Shown piece by piece: positions 27,586 to 39,294 of a stretch of 64,000 bases of DNA; position 1 is the stretch's first letter; every line of letters begins with the position of its first letter. This DNA comes from Planctomycetota bacterium (GTDB taxonomy: Bacteria > Planctomycetota > GCA-002687715 > CAIWVZ01). The notes beneath the pieces are model-generated. The model worked only from the letters and a program-made list of their open reading frames with translations, did no database searches and was not told the origin of the DNA. Position numbers and translations under genes: made by a program. Where the stretch lies: positions 1,984,001 through 2,048,000 of the forward strand of contig JBGANV010000001.1 in NCBI GenBank assembly GCA_044222185.1, in the 5' to 3' direction.

Positions 27586-29610
27586 TCACACGAGCGCGTA
27601 GCCGGTCATGACCAGCAGCGCGAGCCCGAGGACGATCGTCGTGGCGCCGAAGATCCGCGCGGCGATCCGCACTCCACGCGACGGCGGCGGCGTCACCATC
27701 TCCGCGAGGCGTCCTTCCTTGACGAGGAGTTCGTACTCCTCCGGTCGCTCCTCCTTGAGCTCGCCTTCCGGCACGACGCCGGTGTAGAAGCCCACGTCGA
27801 GCGGGAACTTGTCCGGACGGAGATTCGTCTGGAATGCCTGCACGGCGAAGTGGAATGCGACCGCCAGAAGCGCCTCGAGTCCATGGATGACGCCCGCCGC
27901 GTTCAGGAGCCACGGAGGCATGGCGCGCGAGAACCACTCGGGGAACCAGAGCATGGCACCCGTGAGTCCCATGATTCCCATGCCCCAGAACACCGCCCAG
28001 AAGTCGAACTTCTCCCAGTAGATCCATCGCCCGAACTGGGGCTTCGGACCGCGACCCAGGAACCAGCGGAAGTTCCCTGCGAGGTCCTGGAAGTCCTTCA
28101 GGCGCGGAACCATGGACCACGGCCCGCGGAACAGGCCACGTTCACGCTTGACGATGAACCGCCAGAGGACGTGCAGTACGAAGAAGGCGAACGTCAGGAG
28201 AAGCAGGACTGCGGCGAACCGATGCAACAGGGCGGCCGTCGTCGTCCCGCCGAACACCTTCATGACGGTGCGAGCCCATCGCTCCTGGCTGAAGTAGAGG
28301 GGCAGACCGGTGCCGGCGAGCATGAGGATCGCCGTCGTCGCGACGACGTTCACTCCGATGTGGACCTTCTTCATCCGCCGGATCCAGCGGACGTGCTCGC
28401 CGTGGCCCTCGTGGTTCAGCCGCCACTCCCGCGCGAGCAGGGAGCGTGCGAGCCACAGGAACACGTGGAGCCCTCCGAACGTCATCACCGTCAGGATGAG
28501 GCCCATCATCACGAGCCAGACCGCATTCAGGCCTGGGTACTCGCTGGATTTCTTCGGATCCGCGTGAACGAGATAGCCGGCGAAAGACGGGTTGGAGTTC
28601 TCGTGGCACTGGCCGCACGTGGCGACGCGCCGTGCCGGGTTGATGGACGAGGTCGGCTGGGATTCGGGAAGGATCTCGTGGTTTTCGTGGCACGTGTTGC
28701 ACGTCGCGACGCGGCCGTCGTATCCGAGCGAAGTGACCTTGCCGTGGTAGGTGAGGCGGAACGACACGCCGCGCTCGTCGTGGCATCGCGAGCACGACGC
28801 GACCGAGTCGGAGATGAACTGGGGTTCCGCGGTCTTGATGCCGTGCGGCTGATGGCAGTCCGTGCAGGTCGCGCCCTTGTGCTCGGCCCCGTTCGACTTC
28901 AGGTGATGGACGCTGCGCCGGTACTCCTCGAAGGGCGTCACGTGGCACTTCCCGCACTTCTGATCTACGCGCTCCCTGGCCAACGGCGAGTCGGGGTCCT
29001 TCTTGGCGTGGATGTCGTGGCCGCCGTGGCACGCGACACAGGTGGCGGACACCGTCAGCCCCGCCACGATGATTCCGTGGGCGTGCACGTCGCTCGCGTA
29101 CCTCTCGAACCGGAGAGGGCTGCCGATCGGTGCATCCGTGGCTCCGTTGGCATGGCACTTCGTGCACGTCACGTGAACGTTCAGCGGATACAGCGTCGAC
29201 TCGCGGTCGGACGGCTTGAAGATGTCGTGCACGCCGTGGCACGACTGACAGGTCACGGAGACGGCGGGGCGGCTCTCCGGGGCGCTCGATGCGGCGCGTC
29301 CGTGAACGCTCTTCGCGAAGACCTTGGCGGCCTCGTCGTGGCAGTCGGCGCAACCCGCAGTCGTCCGCCCTTTCTCGTGCGGGTACGGGCCGAAATCCAT
29401 GTGGCACTCGTCGCAGGATTTCGACTTGTGCACGGAGCGATCAAAACGGGTCTTGTCGACGAGAAGCCGCTCCACCGGCCTCGTCGGATCACCCAGGGCC
29501 TTCGCCAGCGCGTCCTTCGACGCGTGGCATTCGACGCACGATGGCTGTTGAGCCATTGCCGCGTCGACTGCAAGGAGAACGACGACGACCGCAAAGACTC
29601 GCGGACACAT
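27586..29610 (-). CDS. CbcL-like fusion: 11-heme periplasmic cytochrome c plus C-terminal membrane cytochrome b (FdnI/HydC-like), putative quinol oxidoreductase
   Basis: Signal peptide; 11 CxxCH (CVECH to CGQCH); membrane domain with LLHRFAA, FGRWIYWEKFDFWAVFWG, IHGLEALLA. Confidence 0.85.
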   Translation of the reverse strand: MCPRVFAVVVVLLAVDAAMAQQPSCVECHASKDALAKALGDPTRPVERLLVDKTRFDRSVHKSKSCDECHMDFGPYPHEKGRTTAGCADCHDEAAKVFAKSVHGRAASSAPESRPAVSVTCQSCHGVHDIFKPSDRESTLYPLNVHVTCTKCHANGATDAPIGSPLRFERYASDVHAHGIIVAGLTVSATCVACHGGHDIHAKKDPDSPLARERVDQKCGKCHVTPFEEYRRSVHHLKSNGAEHKGATCTDCHQPHGIKTAEPQFISDSVASCSRCHDERGVSFRLTYHGKVTSLGYDGRVATCNTCHENHEILPESQPTSSINPARRVATCGQCHENSNPSFAGYLVHADPKKSSEYPGLNAVWLVMMGLILTVMTFGGLHVFLWLARSLLAREWRLNHEGHGEHVRWIRRMKKVHIGVNVVATTAILMLAGTGLPLYFSQERWARTVMKVFGGTTTAALLHRFAAVLLLLTFAFFVLHVLWRFIVKRERGLFRGPWSMVPRLKDFQDLAGNFRWFLGRGPKPQFGRWIYWEKFDFWAVFWGMGIMGLTGAMLWFPEWFSRAMPPWLLNAAGVIHGLEALLAVAFHFAVQAFQTNLRPDKFPLDVGFYTGVVPEGELKEERPEEYELLVKEGRLAEMVTPPPSRGVRIAARIFGATTIVLGLALLVMTGYALV

Positions 29611-29638
29611 GTTCGTGTTCCTCAGCGCATCCCTGCCG

Positions 29639-31693
29639 TCACTTTCCGAGCTTCTTGTCGCATTCGTCGAGGAAGGAGCTCGCGGCTGTGAACAGCGAGG
29701 ATGCTCCGTTCGTGTTGTGAGAGGGTCCTGCCAGCGCACCCGCCTCGAAACAGGCTTTCGCCTTCGCGAAAAGTGCGCGTGCTTCCGTGGTGGCGGCTCC
29801 TGGAGCCGCCGCGGAGATCTTGAGTTCCGTGGCCTTCAGTCGGTCCGACAGGGTCTTCGACTCATCGGCCATGGCTTCACGCCATTGATCCAGCATGGAC
29901 CCGTAGCTCTCCTGCTTCTTGTGGCAGGCGATGCACTCTGCGCGGACCTCGGCGACGAGGTCCTTCGGGTCCTGGCGCTTGTGGCACTCCGTGCACGCCA
30001 CCTTCGCCATGTCGTTCTTGAGATCCAGCGTCGCGCCCTCGATGCGGATGTTCCCCGTGAGGAGCGCCGCCTCCCGATCGTGGCACGTGGCGCAGTCGGG
30101 CTTCTTGTCGTTGCCGTGGTGGCAATCAGTGCAGTCCTTCGGCTTGAACGTCGTCACGCCGTGCTTGTCTTCGTCGTGACACGCGTTGCAGTCGAGGTCC
30201 GTCTTCGCCAGGTGGGCGCGGTGACGGAACTGGACTCCGCCGAACCGGACGTTGATTCGCGCCGCATCGACGTGGCACGTATCGGCGCAGTGCGTGTCGA
30301 GCTTCCGCGGAACGCCGATGTCGATGTCCAGGGGCTTGAACGCCGGATCGAGCCCTGGGCCGGCCTCGTTGATCGCGTCCTTCGTCTTGCGGAGCAATGC
30401 CAGCGTGTACGTGATGTTGTGGGCGCCGTTCGAGCCGTCGGAGTGCACCAGGTCCAGGTTCTTGCGCGCGATCTCGAGCGACTGCGACGACCTGGCCGCC
30501 GCCCCCGCCTTCTCCAGCCCGGCAACCGCCCCATCCAGGCTCGTGAGGGCGCCAGTCACTTCCGTCCGCCAGCCCGTGAGCATGTTCCCGAACGTAGGGC
30601 CGTGGCAGTGCATGCACGACGTGTCGCCGGCCACGGGCATCCCCCCGTTGCGCGTCTTGCGGCTCTCGGCGCCCGGCCAGCCACGATGACAACCTGCACA
30701 ATCGACGCGCGTCTCGAACATCCGGTCCGGCCGGCCCTCGACGCCAGCGCCTCCCGTTCCCGAACGCATCAGGTGTTGCGTGTCGTGCAGTGCCGTGTGG
30801 CATTGCCCACAGTCCCCCGCCGTCGTCACGTGATCCCGCTCGGGAAGCTTGTGCTCCACTTCCTCGTGGCACTGATCGCATTCGATCTTGTGCTTCGTGA
30901 TGTGGTTCTCGTGGATGAACGCCACGTCGTTGAATCGGTTCAGGTGCTCGGGGGCACCGTGGCAAGTCGTGCACCGGGACTTCTTCGCGAGTCCGCTCCC
31001 GCGCGTGACGTTCCGATGACACAGGACGCACTCCGCCCCGCGGCCCACCCATTCGGAGTGACGGAACGGACGCCCGGAGACGTTCAGGTCCTCGGCGGGC
31101 GGTCCGTGGCACGTGTTGCAGTCGGCGTGCGCCTCGCTCTGCTCCGACGGACGCAGGTGGCACAGGAAGCAGCTGGAGCCGGTCACGGACATGTGCTCGC
31201 CCTGAACGATCTGCGAGTGGCAGCTCGTGCATCGAAGCTGGCGGCCGCGGCGCGTCTCGAGCAGGTGGCGGCGATGGTCGAACTTCACTCGGCCGAACGC
31301 GATGGGTCCGGACAGGAGCCGCTCGCTGTGGCAGCCCGACCGCATGCAGCTCTGGTCGCTGACCTCGGCCCAGGGCTTCGTCCCCTCCGTGTTGGTCACG
31401 TACTTCGTGAGCTGGTTGATCGCCTTGAACTTCCCGTCGACGGTCTCGAGGAGCCCAGGTTCGAAGTGGCAATCCACGCACTCGACCTTGCTGTGCGCCG
31501 AGTGCTTCCACGATTCGAAGTAGGGCTCCATGATGTGACACGACTTGCAGAAATCGGAGCGCGAGGTGTAGGCGACCATGCCGGTCGTCCCCACGGCACC
31601 GACGCCGAAGAGGATCGTCATCACGATCAACGCCGTCACCGCGAGCGCACGCGCGCGGGTCCAGATTCGCTTGATCCTCTGCAGGATGCTCAC
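29639..31693 (-). CDS. NapC/NirT-type membrane-anchored multiheme cytochrome c (16 CxxCH plus CX4CH and CX3CH)
   Basis: N-terminal TM then YTSRSDFCKSCHIMEPYFESWKHSAH..VECVDCH (NapC/NirT pattern); atypical CMRSGCH and CADTCH; GTGA overlap with the upstream gene. Confidence 0.85.
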   Translation of the reverse strand: MSILQRIKRIWTRARALAVTALIVMTILFGVGAVGTTGMVAYTSRSDFCKSCHIMEPYFESWKHSAHSKVECVDCHFEPGLLETVDGKFKAINQLTKYVTNTEGTKPWAEVSDQSCMRSGCHSERLLSGPIAFGRVKFDHRRHLLETRRGRQLRCTSCHSQIVQGEHMSVTGSSCFLCHLRPSEQSEAHADCNTCHGPPAEDLNVSGRPFRHSEWVGRGAECVLCHRNVTRGSGLAKKSRCTTCHGAPEHLNRFNDVAFIHENHITKHKIECDQCHEEVEHKLPERDHVTTAGDCGQCHTALHDTQHLMRSGTGGAGVEGRPDRMFETRVDCAGCHRGWPGAESRKTRNGGMPVAGDTSCMHCHGPTFGNMLTGWRTEVTGALTSLDGAVAGLEKAGAAARSSQSLEIARKNLDLVHSDGSNGAHNITYTLALLRKTKDAINEAGPGLDPAFKPLDIDIGVPRKLDTHCADTCHVDAARINVRFGGVQFRHRAHLAKTDLDCNACHDEDKHGVTTFKPKDCTDCHHGNDKKPDCATCHDREAALLTGNIRIEGATLDLKNDMAKVACTECHKRQDPKDLVAEVRAECIACHKKQESYGSMLDQWREAMADESKTLSDRLKATELKISAAAPGAATTEARALFAKAKACFEAGALAGPSHNTNGASSLFTAASSFLDECDKKLGK

Positions 31694-32976
31694 GGCCGGC
31701 CCTCCGCCGGAGTGTCCGCCGCGACTCGCAGCCGGCTCAGCCGTCGCACGTGCACGTACAACGCGGCGACGAGGATGCCGATCGCGCTGAAGACGATCGC
31801 AGCGAGGATGCGGCGGTCGCGGATGTTCCGGAGCTTCACCGACAGGGATTCATCCACCTTCGTCACGACGCCGTCCGCCTTCGCGACGAGCGCCTTGAAC
31901 TCATCGACGGACGCCGCGTGTCCCACGGGACCTGCCATCACGAGCGAGTGACGCGCATCGTTGATGTAGGTCTCTTCCGCGCGCACCACGATGCCCTTGC
32001 TGCGAGCGTCGGTGATGCGGTCCGTCGTCTCGGAGACGCGGTTGCGAAGCCCGGACATGAGATCGGCCATCGCGTGCGCGGCCATGGCTCCCTTGTCACT
32101 CTTGCCGTTGACTTCGTGGCACTGCGCGCAGGCCAGCGGCTTCCAGCCTTCCGTGACCACGTCCGACGTCTCCTCGATGTCGTGGTATCGATGGCAGCTG
32201 GTGCATTCCTGCATCTTCCCGGCGGTCGCGGCGGCAAAGTGCGGGGAACGCCTGAAGTAGTCCCGCGCGGCGACGTGGCATTGCCCGCAAACGTCCGCGA
32301 CTTCCGTGACGCCTGCGGGCCGCGCCCCGTGCGCCGAGTGGCAGTCACTGCAGTTCGGAAGTCGCAGCTGCTTCCCGCTGAGCAGCCCCTTGCCGTGAAC
32401 GCTCTTCGAGTACTTCTCGAAGACGTCGGCCGTGAGCTTGTACGGCTTCATCCGCTCGACGTCTGCATGGCAGCGCGAGCAGGTCACGGGCACCCGCGCC
32501 CGATACGTCGGCGACTCGGGATCAGTCTTGCTGCGGACGTCGTGGGCCCGGTGGCAGTCGATGCAGGTCGGGACGTTCTTGTCGCCCTTCTCCATCAGCG
32601 CCTTGCCGTGCGGGCTACGCTGGTAGTACGCCAGCTGTCCTGTCGGCAGTCCGTAGCGGAACATGGCATCGGGGTCGCTGTGGCAATTCCCGCACAGCTC
32701 CACGACGGCCTTGCCGCGCGGCACGCCCTTGAATGCGGGGTTGTCGATGCACGCGGCGCGCGTCCCGATCGAGGGATCGCCGCCATGGCAGGTGACGCAA
32801 CCGACACCGGCGTCCGCGTGGACGCCCGTGACGTGCAGCGCCGCTTCCTTGCCGTGACACACGGCGCACGCCTTGTCCCCCGTGGGGCGGGTCGTCGTCT
32901 GTCCGGGGGCGAGGGCCGCTCCCCAGACGAGGGCGATCGACAGGGCGACGACCGAGCTGACCAGCGTGGTCCTCAT
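31690..32976 (-). CDS. Nonaheme cytochrome c with a C-terminal membrane anchor (bc module 2)
   Basis: Signal peptide, 9 CxxCH, helical stalk and C-terminal TM; paralog of 35200-36558. Confidence 0.88.
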   Translation of the reverse strand: MRTTLVSSVVALSIALVWGAALAPGQTTTRPTGDKACAVCHGKEAALHVTGVHADAGVGCVTCHGGDPSIGTRAACIDNPAFKGVPRGKAVVELCGNCHSDPDAMFRYGLPTGQLAYYQRSPHGKALMEKGDKNVPTCIDCHRAHDVRSKTDPESPTYRARVPVTCSRCHADVERMKPYKLTADVFEKYSKSVHGKGLLSGKQLRLPNCSDCHSAHGARPAGVTEVADVCGQCHVAARDYFRRSPHFAAATAGKMQECTSCHRYHDIEETSDVVTEGWKPLACAQCHEVNGKSDKGAMAAHAMADLMSGLRNRVSETTDRITDARSKGIVVRAEETYINDARHSLVMAGPVGHAASVDEFKALVAKADGVVTKVDESLSVKLRNIRDRRILAAIVFSAIGILVAALYVHVRRLSRLRVAADTPAEGRP

Positions 32977-34307
32977 GACAATCCCGCTCCGTGGATGGAC
33001 AACGCCACCAACCCGAATAGGAGGGCGATCCCGATTGCCGGGGTCAGGTAGGGACGCTTGGGCCTGCCGTCGAAGTGCGTATCGAGCATCGGCCAGATCA
33101 AGGCGACGATCACGACGAGCCACAGGCCTGCCGTGACCAGGACCGACAGCGTCGGCGGCACCAGGTCCTCCAGTCCGTGGAACCACAGGACGTACCACGG
33201 GCGGGTGGTGGAGGCGATTCGGTGGAACTGGTCCGGTGCTCCATTGATCGGTGGCGGAAGCCACGCTGACAGGAGCACCAAGGCGCCAGCCATGACGAGG
33301 TTCGTGCCCAAGATCCTCAGGAAGTGATTGGGGAAGAACGTCCTTCCCGCAGGTCCCGGCGAGATGGCGACCACTTCCTTGACGCGTGGGTCACGGCTCA
33401 GTGTCGCGGCAAGCTCGGAACGGCAGCCCTCGATGTGGAACACGGCACGTCCCTCCAGCGCTTCCTGGCGGAGCTGGACGTTCTCGGCTTCGATCTGTGC
33501 GCGGAGCACGGCGACTTCCGCCTGCGTGGCGTCGACCCGGAGTACCGCGAGCATGGATTCGTTGGGCGGTTCGCCGCCTCGCGGCGGAACCGGTGGCGTC
33601 AAACCGTGGCGCCACACGAGTCGCAAGTGCGTCGAGAGGAGGAAGAACAGGGTCCACGGCAGGAGGATCACGTGAAGCGCGAACGCGCGCCCCAGCGCCG
33701 CGTTCGAGAGATCGGTCCCGTCGGCGAAACGTCCGAGGAACGCTCCGATGATCCCGATCCCGGTCCCCGGGCGGAGGGCGCGGGCACCGTTCCAGTAGGC
33801 GGCCTGATCCCACGGCAGGAGCGTGCCCGTGAAATGAAGGCTGAGGACCACCGGGAGAACCAGGAGGCCGACGACCCAGTTGGCCTGCCGCGGCGCTCGG
33901 AACGCCCGGCTGAAGAAGGCGCGCAGGACATGCACGGCGACGAGGACCACGAGCAGTTCGGCGGCCCAATGATGGGTACCCCGGACGAGCCAGCCGGCGG
34001 GTAGCTCGGCCGTGATCTCCAGCACGCTCGTGTGCGCCGTCTCCGGATGGGCCTCGTAATGGAAACTGAGGAGGATTCCGGTACCGGCGAGAACGAACAC
34101 GAGGAACAGGGCCGCAGGTCCGAAGACGTGCATCCAGCCGACGCCTCGGTAGATGGGCCGACGCCACGCACGCGCGATGGCTTCACCGGGCCGAAGCCTG
34201 TCGTCCAGCGGGTGATACAGGAACCCGACCCACCGCAACAGCGCACCGACGGTGCGGCTGTCGACACTGGACCCGAGCCAAGCCCGCAAGCCTTTGAAGA
34301 ATGCCAT
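32973..34307 (-). CDS. Cytochrome b of a Rieske/cytochrome b complex (module 2) with an inserted ferredoxin-like domain
   Basis: GWLVRGTHHWAA...VHVLR and FALHVILLP...STHLRLV supply 4 heme His; GTLLPWDQAAYW; RPWY where PEWY is expected; about 65-aa insert at 33355-33554. Confidence 0.88.
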   Translation of the reverse strand: MAFFKGLRAWLGSSVDSRTVGALLRWVGFLYHPLDDRLRPGEAIARAWRRPIYRGVGWMHVFGPAALFLVFVLAGTGILLSFHYEAHPETAHTSVLEITAELPAGWLVRGTHHWAAELLVVLVAVHVLRAFFSRAFRAPRQANWVVGLLVLPVVLSLHFTGTLLPWDQAAYWNGARALRPGTGIGIIGAFLGRFADGTDLSNAALGRAFALHVILLPWTLFFLLSTHLRLVWRHGLTPPVPPRGGEPPNESMLAVLRVDATQAEVAVLRAQIEAENVQLRQEALEGRAVFHIEGCRSELAATLSRDPRVKEVVAISPGPAGRTFFPNHFLRILGTNLVMAGALVLLSAWLPPPINGAPDQFHRIASTTRPWYVLWFHGLEDLVPPTLSVLVTAGLWLVVIVALIWPMLDTHFDGRPKRPYLTPAIGIALLFGLVALSIHGAGLS

Positions 34308-34474
34308 CGCGCTACTCCGTCGTCGTCAGGGCGGCGAACGATCCCGCACACCGATTCCGCTCCCCATGCGCACAAAGCCGCGGAGGCATCACCGCACTCC
34401 GCCACCCCGCGGCCGGCGCGGGACTCGATCGTGGTTCGATTCCATCCCTGCCAGCCTGGCGCCTCGAAAAACGA

Positions 34475-35128
34475 TCACGCGTGCGTCTTCACGTACACGC
34501 GGCCATCGATCACGGCGACGGGGAACGTCCTCAGCGGCCTCGGCGGCGGACCATGGAGGACGTTCCCGAACACGTCGTAGGCCGCGCGATGACAGGGGCA
34601 CACGACCTGGTCGCGCCGGGCGTCCCACTCGACCTGGCACACCTCGGAGTGAGTGCAGATGCTCGCGAGCGCACGATAGTCCTTGGCAGCCGTGCGGACG
34701 ACGAGAACCGGAGTGCCCTCCGCTTCGACCGTCCGCCATGGACGCTTGTCGAAGTCGTCGACCGTGCCGGCCGGGATGACGTCGCGGCGCGCCCGTCGAG
34801 CGCCCTTACCGAGGAAGAACCCCCCGGCAATCGCGGCGGCAGCGGCGGCGAGCACCGTCGTCAGGACGCCGATCACGACGCCGAGGAAGCTCCGTCTCGC
34901 TGAGAGCTGCCTCGAAGTCCCAGGCGCCGGCATGGAGACGAATCGCTCGACCGCTGGGTGATCCGCGAGCGCGGCCTCGACGGCGCCCTCGTCACGGCCG
35001 GCAGCCACGAGGAGCAGCGCGTTCGAGTTGCCGGTCACGAGTTGCGCGGTGCAACCGAGCCCGGCGATCCGTTCTTCGAGGTCGCGCCGCGCGTCCACCG
35101 CGATGCCGGGTCGAATGATGATGATCAT
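34475..35128 (-). CDS. Rieske 2Fe-2S protein (module 2) with an N-terminal ferredoxin-like domain before the Tat anchor
   Basis: SARRSFLG Tat motif plus TM; CTHSEVC and CPCH ligand boxes; GPPPRPL. Confidence 0.88.
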   Translation of the reverse strand: MIIIIRPGIAVDARRDLEERIAGLGCTAQLVTGNSNALLLVAAGRDEGAVEAALADHPAVERFVSMPAPGTSRQLSARRSFLGVVIGVLTTVLAAAAAAIAGGFFLGKGARRARRDVIPAGTVDDFDKRPWRTVEAEGTPVLVVRTAAKDYRALASICTHSEVCQVEWDARRDQVVCPCHRAAYDVFGNVLHGPPPRPLRTFPVAVIDGRVYVKTHA

Positions 35129-35199: not shown

Positions 35200-36558
35200 C
35201 TACCCGGCCTTCGCCGCCGATGCCTCGACCGGCAGCGGCATGCGACGAATGACGACGACCAGCACTCCGATCACGACCAGGATCAGCGCGAGCGACCAGA
35301 CGAGCCACACGCGCCGCGCCGTGTACTCGTCCATGGCGGCGTTCGCCTGGAGCTTCACCTTGTCGGTCACGGCACGACCGACGGCGACGGCCTCGTCGAC
35401 CGGCTTCGCGGAGAACGTATGCACCAGCGAACGTGCATTGGTCAGGGCTCCCCGGGCCTTCACGAGTTCGAACCTGGAGGTCCGAACTTCCATTCCACGG
35501 CGCTCGGCGTCCGCGATCATTCCCTCGGCCACGGCGATCTCGGACTTCAGACCTTCGATCTTCCCGCGGATTCCCTCGGCAACCTTCGCCCCCGACGCGG
35601 GAGCGCCGAATCGGCTGTCGTTGTGACACTTGGCACAAACGGCAGCCGAATCCGTACCGATCATCTCGTCGGACGGCTTGTGGATGTCGTGGTAACCGTG
35701 GCACGTGGCGCACCCGGGGAGCTTGACCTCCTCGAACTGGTGCTTCATGCGCGTGCCGGAAAACAGCTCGGCGATCTTGCCGTGGCAGGTGCCGCAAGCG
35801 TTGGCGACCGATCCGACTTCAGGCGGAACGGCGCCGTGGTTGCCGTGGCAGTCGTTGCACGTCGGCGCGCTCACGTCGCCTTTCTTCAACATCGCGACGC
35901 CATGCACGCTCTTCTGCCAGAGATCCAGCTGATTCGTCGGCAGCGGTGCGTCGTGGTGCTTCACGCCCGCCATGCGCTGCGTATCGGCGTGACACTTCCC
36001 GCAGGTCGTCGCCACGTTCGTCGCGTACACGGGCGACGCGAGGTCCTCGACTGCCTTGATCCCGTGGCTGCCGTGGCAGGACACGCACGTCGCGACCTTC
36101 TTGTCGGCGGACTCCTTCAGGCGCTTCCCGTGGCCGCTCGTCCAGTACTCGGCGACCTGATCCGTGCGCGGCGACGGCTTGTACTTGCGCATGAACTCGA
36201 TGTCGGAGTGGCATCGGCCGCAGAAGCCGGGCACGTCCGCCGGCGACTTGATCGCGCGGAAGCCATCTTTCTGGCTGTGCGCGTCGGCGTACTCCTCGCC
36301 TTTGGGATTGCCACCGTGGCAGTCCTCGCAGCGAAGGCCGCGCTGCCAGTGATAGTCGGCGGCGAAGTCCTTCTCCGAGACCATGAAGTGGCGGTCCTTC
36401 TCCTCGAACCGCTCGGGATCCGCATGGCACGAAAGACATCCGGACGTGGCCGGCTTGCTCTCGGCCGCTGCAGGCTTGTCCTGGGCCACGAGCATGACGC
36501 CGCAAACCGCGATGCACGCGAGGAGCCATGGGACGCGGATTCGTGTTGGTGTGCTCAT
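35200..36558 (-). CDS. Nonaheme cytochrome c with a C-terminal membrane anchor (bc module 1)
   Basis: Signal peptide, 9 CxxCH (CLSCH to CAKCH), C-terminal TM; ATGA overlap with cytochrome b. Confidence 0.88.
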   Translation of the reverse strand: MSTPTRIRVPWLLACIAVCGVMLVAQDKPAAAESKPATSGCLSCHADPERFEEKDRHFMVSEKDFAADYHWQRGLRCEDCHGGNPKGEEYADAHSQKDGFRAIKSPADVPGFCGRCHSDIEFMRKYKPSPRTDQVAEYWTSGHGKRLKESADKKVATCVSCHGSHGIKAVEDLASPVYATNVATTCGKCHADTQRMAGVKHHDAPLPTNQLDLWQKSVHGVAMLKKGDVSAPTCNDCHGNHGAVPPEVGSVANACGTCHGKIAELFSGTRMKHQFEEVKLPGCATCHGYHDIHKPSDEMIGTDSAAVCAKCHNDSRFGAPASGAKVAEGIRGKIEGLKSEIAVAEGMIADAERRGMEVRTSRFELVKARGALTNARSLVHTFSAKPVDEAVAVGRAVTDKVKLQANAAMDEYTARRVWLVWSLALILVVIGVLVVVIRRMPLPVEASAAKAG

Positions 36559-37673
36559 TCCATCAGCCCCCACACGGTCATGCCGCAGAAGAACAGCGCG
36601 GAAATCCAGGCGAGCGCCACGAGGATGCGACGTCCGAGCCCGGGTCTCTCACTGCGGTCGATGAACGGCACCAACAGCAGCGCCAGTCCGCACAGCCCGA
36701 AGAAGAGGATCCCGAGCACCTCACCCTCCATGCCGAGGATGTGTGCCGGCAGCTTCTTCAGCGCCTGGAACATGAAGAGGAAGTACCACTCGGGGCGGAT
36801 GCCCTCGGGCGCGCTTCCGAACGGGTCGGCCTTCTCCCCGAGCTCCCAGGGAAACAGTGCGGCGAAGGCTGCAAGCACCGCGAGGGCGATGTACCAGCCG
36901 ATCATGTCGCGCAGGAGGAAATGGGGGATGAACCCCATCGACGGGACCTTCGCTTCGCCGCCGTGCTTCTTTGCGACGTGCTCGGGCACGCTCATCCCGT
37001 GTTTCTGCACGAGGTAGAGGTGGAATCCGAGCAGCGCGAGCGTCGTCAGCGGGAGGATTGCGATGTGCAGTGCGTGGAATCGGGCGAGCGTGTCGCCCGT
37101 CACGTTGTCCCCCGCACGCGTGAAGACGAGCAGATCGTGGCCGATGATCGGCACCACGCCGACGATCGCCGTGCCGACGCGCGTCGCGAAGAACGCCAAC
37201 TGGTTCCACGGCAGCAGGTATCCGCTGAACCCGAAGGCGAGGAAGATCATGAGCAGCAGGAAGCCGGTCACCCACGTGATCTCACGGGGACGCCGGTACG
37301 CCCGCATGATGAACGCCGTCAGCATGTGGATGAACAGCACGCCGATCAGCAGGTTGGCCGCCCAGGAGTGGATCGAGCGGATGAGCCACCCGAAATCCAC
37401 CTCCGTCATGATGCGCTGAACGCTCTCGAACGCGCCGTCAGGAGTCGGCTTGTAGAAGAGGCTCAGGAGAATTCCCGTGATGAACTGGATCGCCACGAGG
37501 AACAGCGCCATTCCACCGAGGAAGTAGAAGGCGGACGTCTTGTGGATCGGGACGCGCTTGTGCGCCGCGAGCTCGCGCGCAGCGTCCAGCCCCAGTCGTT
37601 CATCGAGGAAGGCCGACAGCTTGCCCTGCGGAGCCGGCGCGGCCTTCGCGTCCTCAACTCTTGCGGGAGACAA
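36555..37673 (-). CDS. Cytochrome b (b6 + subunit IV fused) of a Rieske/cytochrome b complex (module 1)
   Basis: GWLIRSIHSWAA...FIHM and RFHALH...GFHL supply 4 His; GYLLPWNQ; intact PEWY; no heme-ci Cys (FYFLGG). Confidence 0.93.
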   Translation of the reverse strand: MSPARVEDAKAAPAPQGKLSAFLDERLGLDAARELAAHKRVPIHKTSAFYFLGGMALFLVAIQFITGILLSLFYKPTPDGAFESVQRIMTEVDFGWLIRSIHSWAANLLIGVLFIHMLTAFIMRAYRRPREITWVTGFLLLMIFLAFGFSGYLLPWNQLAFFATRVGTAIVGVVPIIGHDLLVFTRAGDNVTGDTLARFHALHIAILPLTTLALLGFHLYLVQKHGMSVPEHVAKKHGGEAKVPSMGFIPHFLLRDMIGWYIALAVLAAFAALFPWELGEKADPFGSAPEGIRPEWYFLFMFQALKKLPAHILGMEGEVLGILFFGLCGLALLLVPFIDRSERPGLGRRILVALAWISALFFCGMTVWGLME

Positions 37674-38130
37674 GGATCTCCTCCTGTCCGGGCTTCCCCC
37701 GCAACGTGACCTTGTACATCTCCAGCGGCCGCGGCGGCGGCCCGGACACGTTCCGTCCCATGAGGTCGTACACCCCGTTGTGGCAGTTGCAGAAGATGTC
37801 GCCGCGATCCTGCCGGTGTTGCACCGTGCAATCGACGTGCGAGCAGACGGCGTTCAGCGCACGGACCTCGCCATCCTTCGTCTTGATGACGAGGCACGGC
37901 TTGCCACCGAAGTTGAACGGCGCGGGCCAGTGGCCGTCGGCGTCCGGCTTGAGTTCGTTGACCTTGTAGGGCGCGACGGCTTCGAGGTTGCCACCGCTGA
38001 TCTCGCTGGACTTGGGCCGCAGGAACCGCGCAACCGGATAGAAGAGCATGCCAACGGTGGCGACGACCCCGGACCCGAGCATCCGGAGCAGGCCGCGACG
38101 TGGGATCGGAATCTGTTCGGGCTGGCTCAT
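37654..38130 (-). CDS. Rieske 2Fe-2S protein (module 1)
   Basis: PRRGLL Tat motif plus TM, CSHVDC and CNCH boxes, GPPPRPL. Confidence 0.92.
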   Translation of the reverse strand: MSQPEQIPIPRRGLLRMLGSGVVATVGMLFYPVARFLRPKSSEISGGNLEAVAPYKVNELKPDADGHWPAPFNFGGKPCLVIKTKDGEVRALNAVCSHVDCTVQHRQDRGDIFCNCHNGVYDLMGRNVSGPPPRPLEMYKVTLRGKPGQEEILVSRKS

Positions 38131-38237: not shown

Positions 38238-38879
38238 TCAGTGCTTGTTCTTCAGCTCGACGTGTTGATGGAGCTTCGTCGCGTCTTTGATCGACGTCGC
38301 GTAGTCGAACTTCCGGTCCTTGTCGAACGTCGCGCCCTTGTCGTTGTGGCACGTCTTGCAGTTCTCTTCGGTCGGCTCGATCATGCCGAGTTTGAGGACG
38401 TCCGCCTTCGCGAACTTCTCGTTGTCCTTCTTGAACGGACCCGTGAGGCTGCCCGGTCCGTGGCACGATTCGCACTGCACGCCTTCCATCGTCGGCGCGC
38501 GCTTGGTCTCTTCCTCCGTCCAGGCCTTGCCCTCGACGACCGCCGGGTAGCCGCCCGCCAGACCGTAGCCCGTCGTGTGGCACGCGAGGCACTTGGCGTC
38601 CTTGGTGTAGTCCTTCTTGGGGTCGAGTTTGTACTTGGTCTTCGCCTCGACCGCCTGGTCAGGCTTCAGCAGGTCGAAGGACTTGGCCATCGGCGTCTTC
38701 TTCCAGCTGGTGAACTGCTTGAAGTGACACTTCTTGCAGCTCTCGGCCCCGACGTACTGCGGCTTGTCGTCACGCAGGCAGCTGCCCGTCGAGTCGTCGG
38801 ACGTGACCGGAGAGAGCGTGCCGGCTCCAAGGAACACGGCACACAGGAGAATTGCGGGAATCGTGAACCTCATGATCAT
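38238..38879 (-). CDS. Tetraheme cytochrome c554-family protein
   Basis: Signal peptide; YVGAESCKKCH, CLACHTTG, GVQCESCHGPGS, CKTCH. Confidence 0.85.
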   Translation of the reverse strand: MIMRFTIPAILLCAVFLGAGTLSPVTSDDSTGSCLRDDKPQYVGAESCKKCHFKQFTSWKKTPMAKSFDLLKPDQAVEAKTKYKLDPKKDYTKDAKCLACHTTGYGLAGGYPAVVEGKAWTEEETKRAPTMEGVQCESCHGPGSLTGPFKKDNEKFAKADVLKLGMIEPTEENCKTCHNDKGATFDKDRKFDYATSIKDATKLHQHVELKNKH

Positions 38880-39294
38880 TGCTCCTTCGGACTGGTCGTT
38901 TCGTGCGCTCCATGGACGCCAGGCCCAAGTTCGGACTTCGCAACGGCGACACCCCCGGGGGTGGTCGCACGCCGCATCGGAATGCAAAGGCCGCGCCTGC
39001 CCGTTCGATCCCATGCGGCCAACCCACCGACACCGCGCGCCCCGGGATCCCTTGTGTGACTCATTCGCAGCCTCCGCCGCGCCAGTGAGCCGGTGGCTCG
39101 AGGACTCGCGTCCCCGCCATGGCGCAGCTGAGCTCAGGAAATCGCGTCATTCGGTGTCCCACAACGGCTTCGGCGCAATGTAGATCTGCCCCCAACCCGC
39201 TCATAGCCCGGCCGGCCTCCCTGCGTCGCTTTTGCGAGCGCACTACGCACTGGGCTGTAGCGGAAGTTTCGCACTGCGGTATAGCGGCACGGTT

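Follow-up and report, generated by a model that had tools for sequence, protein, structure and literature searches.

Paired ferredoxin-like domains of the DAHP synthase type on the Rieske and cytochrome b subunits of a planctomycete respiratory gene cluster

The window, a stretch of 64,000 nucleotides from a Planctomycetota bacterium (GenBank assembly GCA_044222185.1, contig JBGANV010000001.1, positions 1,984,001 to 2,048,000), possesses two consecutive Rieske/cytochrome b modules on its minus strand. The Rieske protein (Rieske2) and the cytochrome b (cytb2) of the second module each contain a 66-residue domain of the type found at the N-terminus of type I-beta DAHP synthases (FXD-type, ferredoxin-like; Pfam PF18152). 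The two domains are homologous, share the ferredoxin-like fold, occur strictly together in the relatives and belong to a conserved gene cluster that includes large multihaem cytochromes c. From a complex prediction combined with the co-occurrence we infer that they would pair as a heterodimer. Our preferred reading, to which we assign a probability of roughly one half, is a cytoplasmic clasp which would fasten the Rieske membrane anchor to cytochrome b/subunit IV in a specialised Rieske/cytochrome b-multihaem complex.

Few energy-converting enzymes have been studied as thoroughly as the Rieske/cytochrome b complexes, and we know of no soluble regulatory-type domains on their core subunits.

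The N-terminal domain of Rieske2

Rieske2 (34475-35128, minus strand, 217 amino acids) is a single open frame starting with MIIIIRPG. Its first 66 residues (34931-35128) form the FXD-type domain, followed after 12 residues by the twin-arginine motif A77-RRSFL-82 (34883-34900; R78-R79 in ARRSFL), the hydrophobic membrane anchor of the twin-arginine translocation (Tat) signal, and the Rieske 2Fe-2S domain (Pfam Rieske, residues 118-203, E 1.3e-13). The ligand boxes C158-T-H160 and C177-P-C-H180 are invariant in the alignment. Box I (box region 34592-34657, residues 158-179) reads CTHSEVC in Rieske2 as well as in the type A and B relatives introduced below, with one extra residue between the histidine and the second cysteine compared with the usual C-T-H-L-G-C, which is retained by the type C and E Rieske proteins.

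Nine metagenomic proteins are homologous to Rieske2 over their full length (40-61% identity), all with precomputed PF18152 and Rieske calls; a precomputed PF18152 call is present on P0042, too. All ten aligned members of this family, Rieske2 included, begin with M-I in one alignment column and keep the N-terminal domain, so that the start of Rieske2 cannot be put down to faulty annotation. R78 and R79 are invariant in the ten sequences and nearly invariant in a wider alignment of 26 Rieske members from five sub-lineages (types A to E), in all of which (26/26) the frame runs unbroken from the N-domain to the Tat motif. The preliminary description had placed an extension of about 68 amino acids ahead of this motif, in good agreement with the 66-residue domain delimited here.

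A profile search with the 26-row alignment against 1.84 billion cluster representatives returned 22 sequences covering the N-domain among the best 150; type D is the most diverse sub-lineage among the N-termini of these 22. In the type C Rieske proteins (L090-L095, L098) helix 2 is seemingly replaced by a proline-rich loop, e.g. DDPPAGLERPPEV, while the four strands are retained. Genome contigs were additionally scanned with type A peptide patterns, and the 18 loci recovered by these particular patterns, from several phyla, all lack the N-domain.

The insert of cytochrome b2 and its split counterpart

Cytb2 (32973-34307, minus strand, 444 amino acids) combines a b6-like half, the FXD insert and a subunit-IV-like half in a single chain. 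Pfam Cytochrome_B matches residues 58-231 (E 6e-29), our own subunit-IV profile matches residues 331-446, and the haem-ligand histidines H112, H126, H212 and H227 are invariant or nearly so in an alignment with canonical cytochromes b. The insert (residues 251-316, 33360-33557) is located in the D-E loop, right after the end of the b6-like half (...RHGLTPP) and ahead of the subunit-IV-like half; an earlier placement at about 33355-33554 was accurate to within a few bases. It is missing from cytb1, the cytochrome b of module 1, and from three other fused cytochromes b, and is kept in all five clusters of close homologues (5/5 in the alignment, 46-64% identity).

The Qo-site motif of cytb2 is RPWY (33186-33197, residues ~371-374), i.e. 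not PEWY and without acidic residue. Among the domain-bearing modules, type B has VEWY, type D has YPWY, VQWF or APWF, and type C a S-W-P form; the canonical PEWY is found only in L096 and in the plain module 1 (cytb1). An altered PEWY in nearly all domain-bearing modules suggests an unusual Qo-site chemistry, as far as the motif can tell.

A second arrangement, the one seen in the majority of relatives, is present in the metagenome loci found via the Rieske alignment. Here, cytochrome b is split into a b6-like gene, which stops at the position where the window insert starts, and a following gene that begins with the ferredoxin-like domain (MIVLL...) and continues with three subunit-IV helices (FXD-subunit IV). 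Searches at E <= 0.001 retrieved 109 clusters of FXD-subunit IV, 102 of which were aligned (180-200 residues); every eighth row of this alignment was read, and all 13 rows so read start with the domain. The six named records of the split subunit are all proteins of 'Planctomycetota' metagenome-assembled genomes annotated as 'hypothetical protein'.

Identity of the domains

PF18152 (DAHP_snth_FXD, gathering cut-off 27 bits) matches residues 1-64 of Rieske2, searched as a segment alone, over the whole model with E 2e-5 and 24.8 bits. The match to the cytb2 insert spans the whole model as well, and is weak (E 0.026, 14.8 bits). Rieske1 and cytb1 match neither PF18152 nor our own domain profiles, which bears out the earlier statement that module 1 possesses neither domain. 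At E <= 0.01, PF18152 recognises 14 of 26 Rieske members (best 2.3e-14) and nine of 24 cytochrome b/subunit IV members (best 1.4e-6). The source genome possesses its own type I-beta DAHP synthase of 341 amino acids (L069, 679-1704; G000 contig 7) with a canonical FXD domain of 31.8 bits, the sole PF18152 copy above the cut-off in this genome. The hosts of the two domains described here are a Rieske protein and a cytochrome b/subunit IV, with no DAHP synthase catalytic barrel.

The profile of ten Rieske N-domains aligns with that of six cytb2 inserts in 65 of 66-67 columns with a probability of 95% and E 4.1e-8 (hhalign), so the two domains are homologous beyond chance. AlphaFold2 models were computed without templates from 9-row alignments of window and locus DNA, one row being the genome's own DAHP synthase domain. 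Both models display the beta-alpha-beta-beta-alpha-beta order, with a mean predicted local distance difference test score (pLDDT) of 84.3 for the Rieske2 domain and 84.2 for the cytb2 insert. The best match of each to the PDB (Foldseek) is the N-terminal domain of Thermotoga maritima DAHP synthase: 1rzm_A for Rieske2 (template modelling (TM) score 0.79, root-mean-square deviation (rmsd) 2.1 A, E 1.5e-3) and 1vr6_B for cytb2 (TM 0.76, rmsd 1.9 A, E 4.6e-5). Ribosomal protein S6, ACT-domain enzymes and other ferredoxin-like folds rank lower. A sequence-profile search of the PDB likewise returned T. maritima DAHP synthase, residues 1-64, with E 9e-4 to 2.5e-3. The Pfam ACT models (PF01842 and relatives) match neither the whole proteins at E <= 1 nor the segments at E <= 10. 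The ferredoxin-like fold of DAHP synthase type, proposed for both segments in the preliminary description together with a check against PF18152 and solved structures, is accordingly found in the models of both.

The same searches bear on a built-in export or assembly chaperone, a NapD-like domain that would retain the twin-arginine signal pending insertion of the iron-sulfur cluster. Its position 12 residues ahead of the RR motif would suit such a role, and NapD chains do occur in the PDB profile search, only at E 0.94-1.1. This match is not significant, the 50 best fold matches of each model do not include NapD, DAHP synthase is by far the better match, and cytochrome b/subunit IV, which is no Tat substrate, possesses this domain as well. 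With no significant match in sequence or fold, we rejected this reading as very improbable.

Scarcely credible is an artefact, namely a mis-called Rieske start combined with a lineage-specific loop of chance similarity in cytb2. Translation from Met66 would leave a conventional region of 12 residues before the RR motif, and the Pfam scores of the window copies are below the cut-off. Met66, however, is replaced by L, I or V in the other nine family members, and all 26 Rieske members possess an open, conserved frame that starts at residue 1. The cytb2 insert is likewise retained in the close homologues, its counterpart heads a separate gene in the split form (all 13 rows read, from 109 clusters), and both segments fold confidently in the AlphaFold2 models. 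A start of Rieske2 near the RR motif, which the preliminary description had named as a possible objection to its proposal, is contradicted by these data, and we rejected it on the conservation of the residue-1 start.

Not all sub-lineages are equally accessible to profile searches. Our own domain profile, iterated, gave 12 matches in each of three rounds and missed the type B Rieske domain and the type C and type E domains, which were judged by hhalign and alignment instead. For type C (seven loci), comparison with the combined domain profile gave 93% and E 2.7e-7 for subunit IV and 70% and E 3.9e-5 for Rieske. In type B, the subunit IV match is strong (E ~1e-26) and the Rieske match to the insert profile weak (E 0.002-0.005), the Rieske domain being otherwise placed by alignment. 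The subunit IV domain of L096 was placed by alignment alone, and type E subunit IV is unmatched by our own profiles. Strong calls on both partners are available for the window and for L087-L089.

Co-occurrence of the two fusions

A Rieske alignment composed of window and metagenome sequences only (A3) was searched against 401 genomes of the phylum. Its matches cover the N-domain from position <=5 in ten genomes and from position 33 in G077; in G170 and G220 they start at position 72-74 only, and the N-domain was found on reading the loci. Rieske proteins with N-domain are present in 13 of the 401 genomes. An alignment of the split subunit (A9), searched against the same 401 genomes, produced matches from position 1 in exactly those 13; the other 137 A9 matches listed begin at position >=39, and there are 151 more matches outside those listed. 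Because 11 of the 12 other positive genomes had contributed sequences to A9, the second search confirms that there is no additional genome and does not confirm the 12 themselves.

After these searches 20 more loci were retrieved and read, and 30 modules were counted in a total of 27 loci. Both domains are present in 15 modules (window module 2, L020, L022, L076, L087-L096 and L098), neither in 13 (window module 1, the first modules of L092, L094 and L095, and L097 and L099-L106) and one only in none; the remaining two (L019, L021) are cut by contig ends. The pair persists through gene fission and fusion, as a fused cytochrome b with insert in the window and as b6 plus FXD-subunit IV elsewhere. 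The co-occurrence that had been suggested as a check is therefore of the both-or-neither kind, in the same 13 of 401 genomes, with no single-fusion module. Since both copies were kept through fission, fusion and deep sequence divergence, their function should need both.

The tandem of the window, a plain module followed by a domain-bearing one, recurs in G236, G252 and G170. G138 and G077 (92 and 91% complete) possess the domain-bearing module as their only Rieske/cytochrome b match. The preliminary description had considered the domains as an assembly tag keeping the subunits of module 2 together. An assembly role is retained in the reading preferred here; separation from module 1 is insufficient as a full explanation, because in G138 and G077 only one module of this kind was detected.

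Location and predicted pairing

A Rieske signal-anchor inserted by the Tat pathway keeps its N-terminus on the cytoplasmic side. In bc1 and b6f complexes, the end of helix D, the D-E loop, the C-terminus of b6 and the N-terminus of subunit IV all face the electronegative (cytoplasmic or stromal) side. Given this family topology both domains should be cytoplasmic, tethered to the membrane by ~12-17 residues, in line with the cytoplasmic face assumed for them previously.

Residues 1-72 of Rieske2 (14-row alignment) and residues 246-322 of cytb2 (8-row alignment) were submitted to complex prediction. The hetero-pair obtained a median score of 0.68 (runs 0.62, 0.68 and 0.74), compared with 0.02 for the best control, and was classified as 'supports binding'; the mark applied is reached by 116 of 157 solved complexes and two of 215 mismatched pairs, counts that are only approximate with own alignments. 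The runs agree in >=91% of contacts, with a partner pLDDT of >=82. Predicted contacts involve alternate residues of all four strands, i.e. the open face of each sheet. Rieske contact positions 2, 4, 38, 40, 64 and 66 are hydrophobic in 85-100% of 26 sequences and partner positions 253 and 289 in 92-96% of 24 sequences; as these central-strand contacts are hydrophobic across lineages, both sheet faces are apolar, as expected of domains that are always covered. The strict co-occurrence argues independently for the hetero-interaction. Pairing of the two copies, put forward in the preliminary description, is thus reproduced in the prediction, subject to the reservation about solved dimers given below.

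According to our preferred reading, one FXD domain would lie at the cytoplasmic N-terminus of Rieske, ahead of the Tat signal-anchor, and the other in the D-E loop of cytochrome b, equivalent in the split form to the N-terminus of subunit IV. The two would bind via the open hydrophobic faces of their four-stranded sheets, and the bound pair would act as a cytoplasmic clasp that fastens the Rieske membrane anchor to cytochrome b/subunit IV. The complex would be a planctomycete quinol-oxidising complex of Rieske/cytochrome b type with 9-haem and 16-haem cytochromes c as partners. The role of the window copy would be mainly structural, in assembly or stability of the Rieske subunit, and in some relatives a ligand may modulate it.

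Quite unlikely, in our view, is an arrangement in which the two domains do not pair with each other, and instead form homodimers across the two-fold axis of the complex or a joint docking platform for a cytoplasmic partner. We take bc-type complexes to be dimeric, with helices D and E near the dimer axis, and the ancestral domain homodimerises in DAHP synthase. Rieske/cytochrome b complexes of anammox planctomycetes possess cytoplasmic partners, according to PMC5600118 and PMC12954380. Independent homodimers, on the other hand, would not need both-or-neither co-occurrence, no conserved cytoplasmic gene is present among the 18 neighbours scanned, and the heterodimer prediction passed its controls.

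Clasp or sensor

Few residues are invariant across the lineages beyond the hydrophobic pattern and a P-x-V turn before the last strand. This low invariance, the apparent loss of helix 2 in type C and the absence of the hairpin motif from the window copy argue for a mainly structural role. The motif in question reads S-x-G-x-[ED]-[RQ] and lies in the beta2-beta3 hairpin. Of 46 distinct Rieske copies 19 retain it, those of type D and some type A copies, and it is present in none of 121 partner domains. Its retention speaks for a binding site preserved in part of the family. The window Rieske2 has VTGNSN compared with SKGQER in T. maritima DAHP synthase. Such an asymmetry between Rieske and partner is the pattern to be expected of a heterodimer with one functional and one degenerate site. 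In the T. maritima enzyme the hairpin is presumably involved in tyrosine binding.

A metabolite-gated complex offers a possible, rather doubtful reading of the same data: an ACT-like sensor pair, whose pairing is induced or stabilised by a ligand, would alter activity, e.g. through access to the quinone-reduction site under the D-E loop. Members of this domain family are known as regulators whose dimerisation depends on a ligand, an FXD domain is present in the DAHP synthase of the genome itself, the beta2-beta3 region is used in the predicted interface, and the 19 Rieske copies with the motif have a hairpin like SKGQER of the T. maritima enzyme. The window copy and all 121 partner domains lack this motif, however, and sequence conservation across the lineages is low. 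His29 and Ser31, which we take to be the tyrosine contacts of the T. maritima enzyme, correspond to Gln and Val in the window copy. For that enzyme, two publications describe an N-terminal ferredoxin-like domain which binds Phe/Tyr and restricts active-site access (PMC5526877), and a reorientation of the regulatory domain by ~110 degrees driven by Tyr (PMC4822156), both in favour of a sensor.

A further step, and an unlikely one, is a ligand-induced latch derived from the tyrosine-sensing domain of DAHP synthase, which would couple a cytoplasmic metabolite, for example an aromatic amino acid or a chorismate-derived compound, to the flow of electrons from quinol to periplasmic multihaem cytochromes.

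Returning to the clasp, several points weigh against it. The hairpin of 19 of 46 Rieske copies contains a conserved polar motif, which would be expected of a binding site more than of a clasp. The complex prediction was based on isolated domains and shallow alignments of our own (14 and 8 rows), and a similar solved complex exists, 3PG9, which we take to be the tyrosine-bound dimer of DAHP synthase regulatory domains; the pass may therefore reflect memory, and the hetero-pair score may indicate likeness instead of binding. Both window copies score below the PF18152 cut-off (24.8 and 14.8 compared with 27 bits), and in three lineages (B, C and E) the domain call of one partner comes from weak matches or alignment by eye. 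The A9 search included sequences from 11 of the 12 other positive genomes. Finally, a maximum-likelihood tree of 51 domain sequences (68 columns) leaves 27 of 48 inner branches open, and neither shows nor excludes a single origin of the Rieske and subunit IV copies.

Gene cluster and genomic context

Open reading frames, Pfam matches and CXXCH counts delimit a cluster of nine genes on the minus strand at ~27.6-39.0 kb of the window. The source genome comprises 7.08 Mb in 16 contigs, with 67% G+C and an estimated completeness of 93.8%. The cluster is headed by a four-haem c554-like cytochrome (38238-39014, start uncertain; Cytochrome_C554 E 1.3e-20, 4 CXXCH). Module 1 follows with Rieske1 (37654-38130, 158 amino acids, without FXD domain according to Pfam and our own domain profiles), the fused b6/subunit IV cytochrome b1 (36555-37673, 372 amino acids, canonical PEWY, no insert) and a nine-haem cytochrome c (35200-36573, 457 amino acids; Pfam, CXXCH count). 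Rieske2 and cytb2 are separated by an unusually long gap of 167 bases (34308-34474), which has no Rfam match and whose fold is not stabler than that of shuffled sequences (z -0.64).

Module 2 continues with a nine-haem cytochrome c (31690-32976, 428 amino acids; 9 CXXCH, Pfam multihaem families). Its ATG overlaps the stop codon of cytb2 as ATGA (32973-32976), implying translational coupling as judged from the arrangement of the two genes, and in L022 the FXD-subunit IV frame continues into the nine-haem cytochrome as one reading frame. Because of this overlap and the single frame of L022, the nine-haem protein is probably the cytochrome f/c1 equivalent of module 2. Two further genes complete the cluster, a sixteen-haem cytochrome c with a NapC/NirT-like membrane anchor (29639-31693, 684 amino acids; 16 CXXCH, Cytochrom_NNT E 3.5e-10) and an eleven-haem cytochrome c with a C-terminal membrane domain (27586-29610; 11 CXXCH, Pfam multihaem families), whose start is probably Met44 of a longer open reading frame (27586-29739). 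The L022 counterpart of the latter matches cytochrome b561 in Pfam, too. Large multihaem cytochromes fused to a cytochrome b561-like membrane domain are present in the window (11 haems) and in L022 (4016-9798; 11 and 19 haems), and we take them to resemble the CbcL-type quinone-linked cytochromes of Geobacter.

About 80 kb past the end of the window (G000:C1:2128439-2128849) there is a third cytochrome b/subunit IV match, which lacks the domain. With this match and four Rieske matches in total, the source genome possesses at least three Rieske/cytochrome b modules.

The neighbourhood of the domain-bearing locus was mapped in 12 relatives (L022, L087-L096, L098). A 9-CXXCH cytochrome, or a longer fused multihaem gene, follows Rieske, b6 and subunit IV in all 12. 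A 16-CXXCH cytochrome is found downstream in ten, with a length of ~670-800 amino acids, or of ~1070-1080 amino acids where it is seemingly fused to the nine-haem protein; no such gene was seen in L092, whose locus is shorter, or in L087, where genes with 14 and 9 CXXCH are present in its place. Frequent features are an upstream four-haem c554-like gene (e.g. L087, L096) and a multihaem/cytochrome b561 fusion. No cytoplasmic protein recurs among the 18 neighbours scanned with Pfam, the recurring genes being multihaem cytochromes and, in two loci, NrfD. In L089 (4863-7197) a NrfD-type membrane protein and a 4Fe-4S dicluster protein are encoded directly upstream of the domain-bearing Rieske gene, and in L098 (5384-6634) a NrfD-type protein lies ~0.8 kb upstream of it. 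These neighbours hint at a link to an alternative-complex-III-like or polysulfide-reductase-like module.

Comparison with known systems

Both domains resemble the N-terminal domain of T. maritima DAHP synthase (1RZM, 1VR6, 3PG9; PF18152) in fold and in detectable sequence homology. Like this ferredoxin-like/ACT-like domain, the Rieske copy is a small dimerising module, as predicted, at the N-terminus of its host, and some Rieske copies share the hairpin. Unlike in DAHP synthase, the hosts are membrane respiratory subunits in place of a barrel, and two diverged copies on two subunits are predicted to form a heterodimer in place of a homodimer, with a window copy devoid of the hairpin motif.

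With b6f/b6c complexes, module 2 shares the Rieske 2Fe-2S motifs, the Tat anchor, the four haem histidines and the combination of b6 and subunit IV, which is fused here and split in the relatives. It differs in the additional cytoplasmic domains on two core subunits, in the mostly altered PEWY (RPWY in the window) and in its partners, cytochromes c with 9 and 16 haems taking the place of cytochrome f or c1. In actinobacterial QcrA, extensions ahead of an internal Tat motif are transmembrane helices; Rieske2 has in common with QcrA the internal twin-arginine motif and extra N-terminal parts in the cytoplasm or membrane, whereas its extension is a soluble folded domain.

The Rieske/cytochrome b complexes of anammox planctomycetes (Kuenenia) possess multihaem subunits and cytoplasmic NAD(P) oxidoreductase-like subunits, as described in PMC5600118 and PMC12954380. 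Like module 2, they are of planctomycete origin, possess multihaem partners and are extended on the cytoplasmic side; the extension there is a separate flavin/iron-sulfur redox subunit, in contrast to the pair of small cofactor-less domains fused to core subunits in module 2. ACT pairs such as the regulatory domain of phenylalanine hydroxylase display the same beta-alpha-beta-beta-alpha-beta order, and pairing is the functional event, according to PMC4822156. The window domains differ from such ACT-domain pairs in that Pfam ACT models do not match them.

Published descriptions and meaning

Within the open full-text literature searched, which excludes subscription journals and supplements, nothing combines Rieske, cytochrome b, DAHP synthase and ferredoxin-like, and nothing joins ACT domain, cytochrome bc, Rieske and fusion. 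The one preprint retrieved that mentions PF18152 is unrelated. Titles and abstract openings of the papers retrieved on Rieske and multihaem proteins of planctomycetes and Phycisphaerae contain nothing on paired domains, and a keyword look-up in a survey of cytochrome bc evolution (PMC5600118) and in a paper on anammox Rieske proteins (PMC12954380) returned no mention of a ferredoxin-like, ACT or regulatory domain. As far as these searches reach, an ordinary enzyme family possesses a conserved pair of accessory domains that lacks a published description.

The conserved planctomycete cluster has the order Rieske-FXD, b6, FXD-subunit IV, 9-haem cytochrome and 16-haem cytochrome, and may function in the exchange of electrons with substrates outside the cell or in the periplasm. 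In it, two core subunits have acquired the same ACT-like domain and have retained their copies together. If ligand binding were retained, the domains would provide direct metabolic input into a respiratory quinol oxidase, and the ligand-induced latch, if true, would be the first allosteric small-molecule sensor within the core subunits of a Rieske/cytochrome b complex. A clasp, should the pair form one, would represent a new way to hold the loosely bound Rieske subunit, and a natural case in which a sensor domain that homodimerises was converted to a module of heterodimeric assembly.

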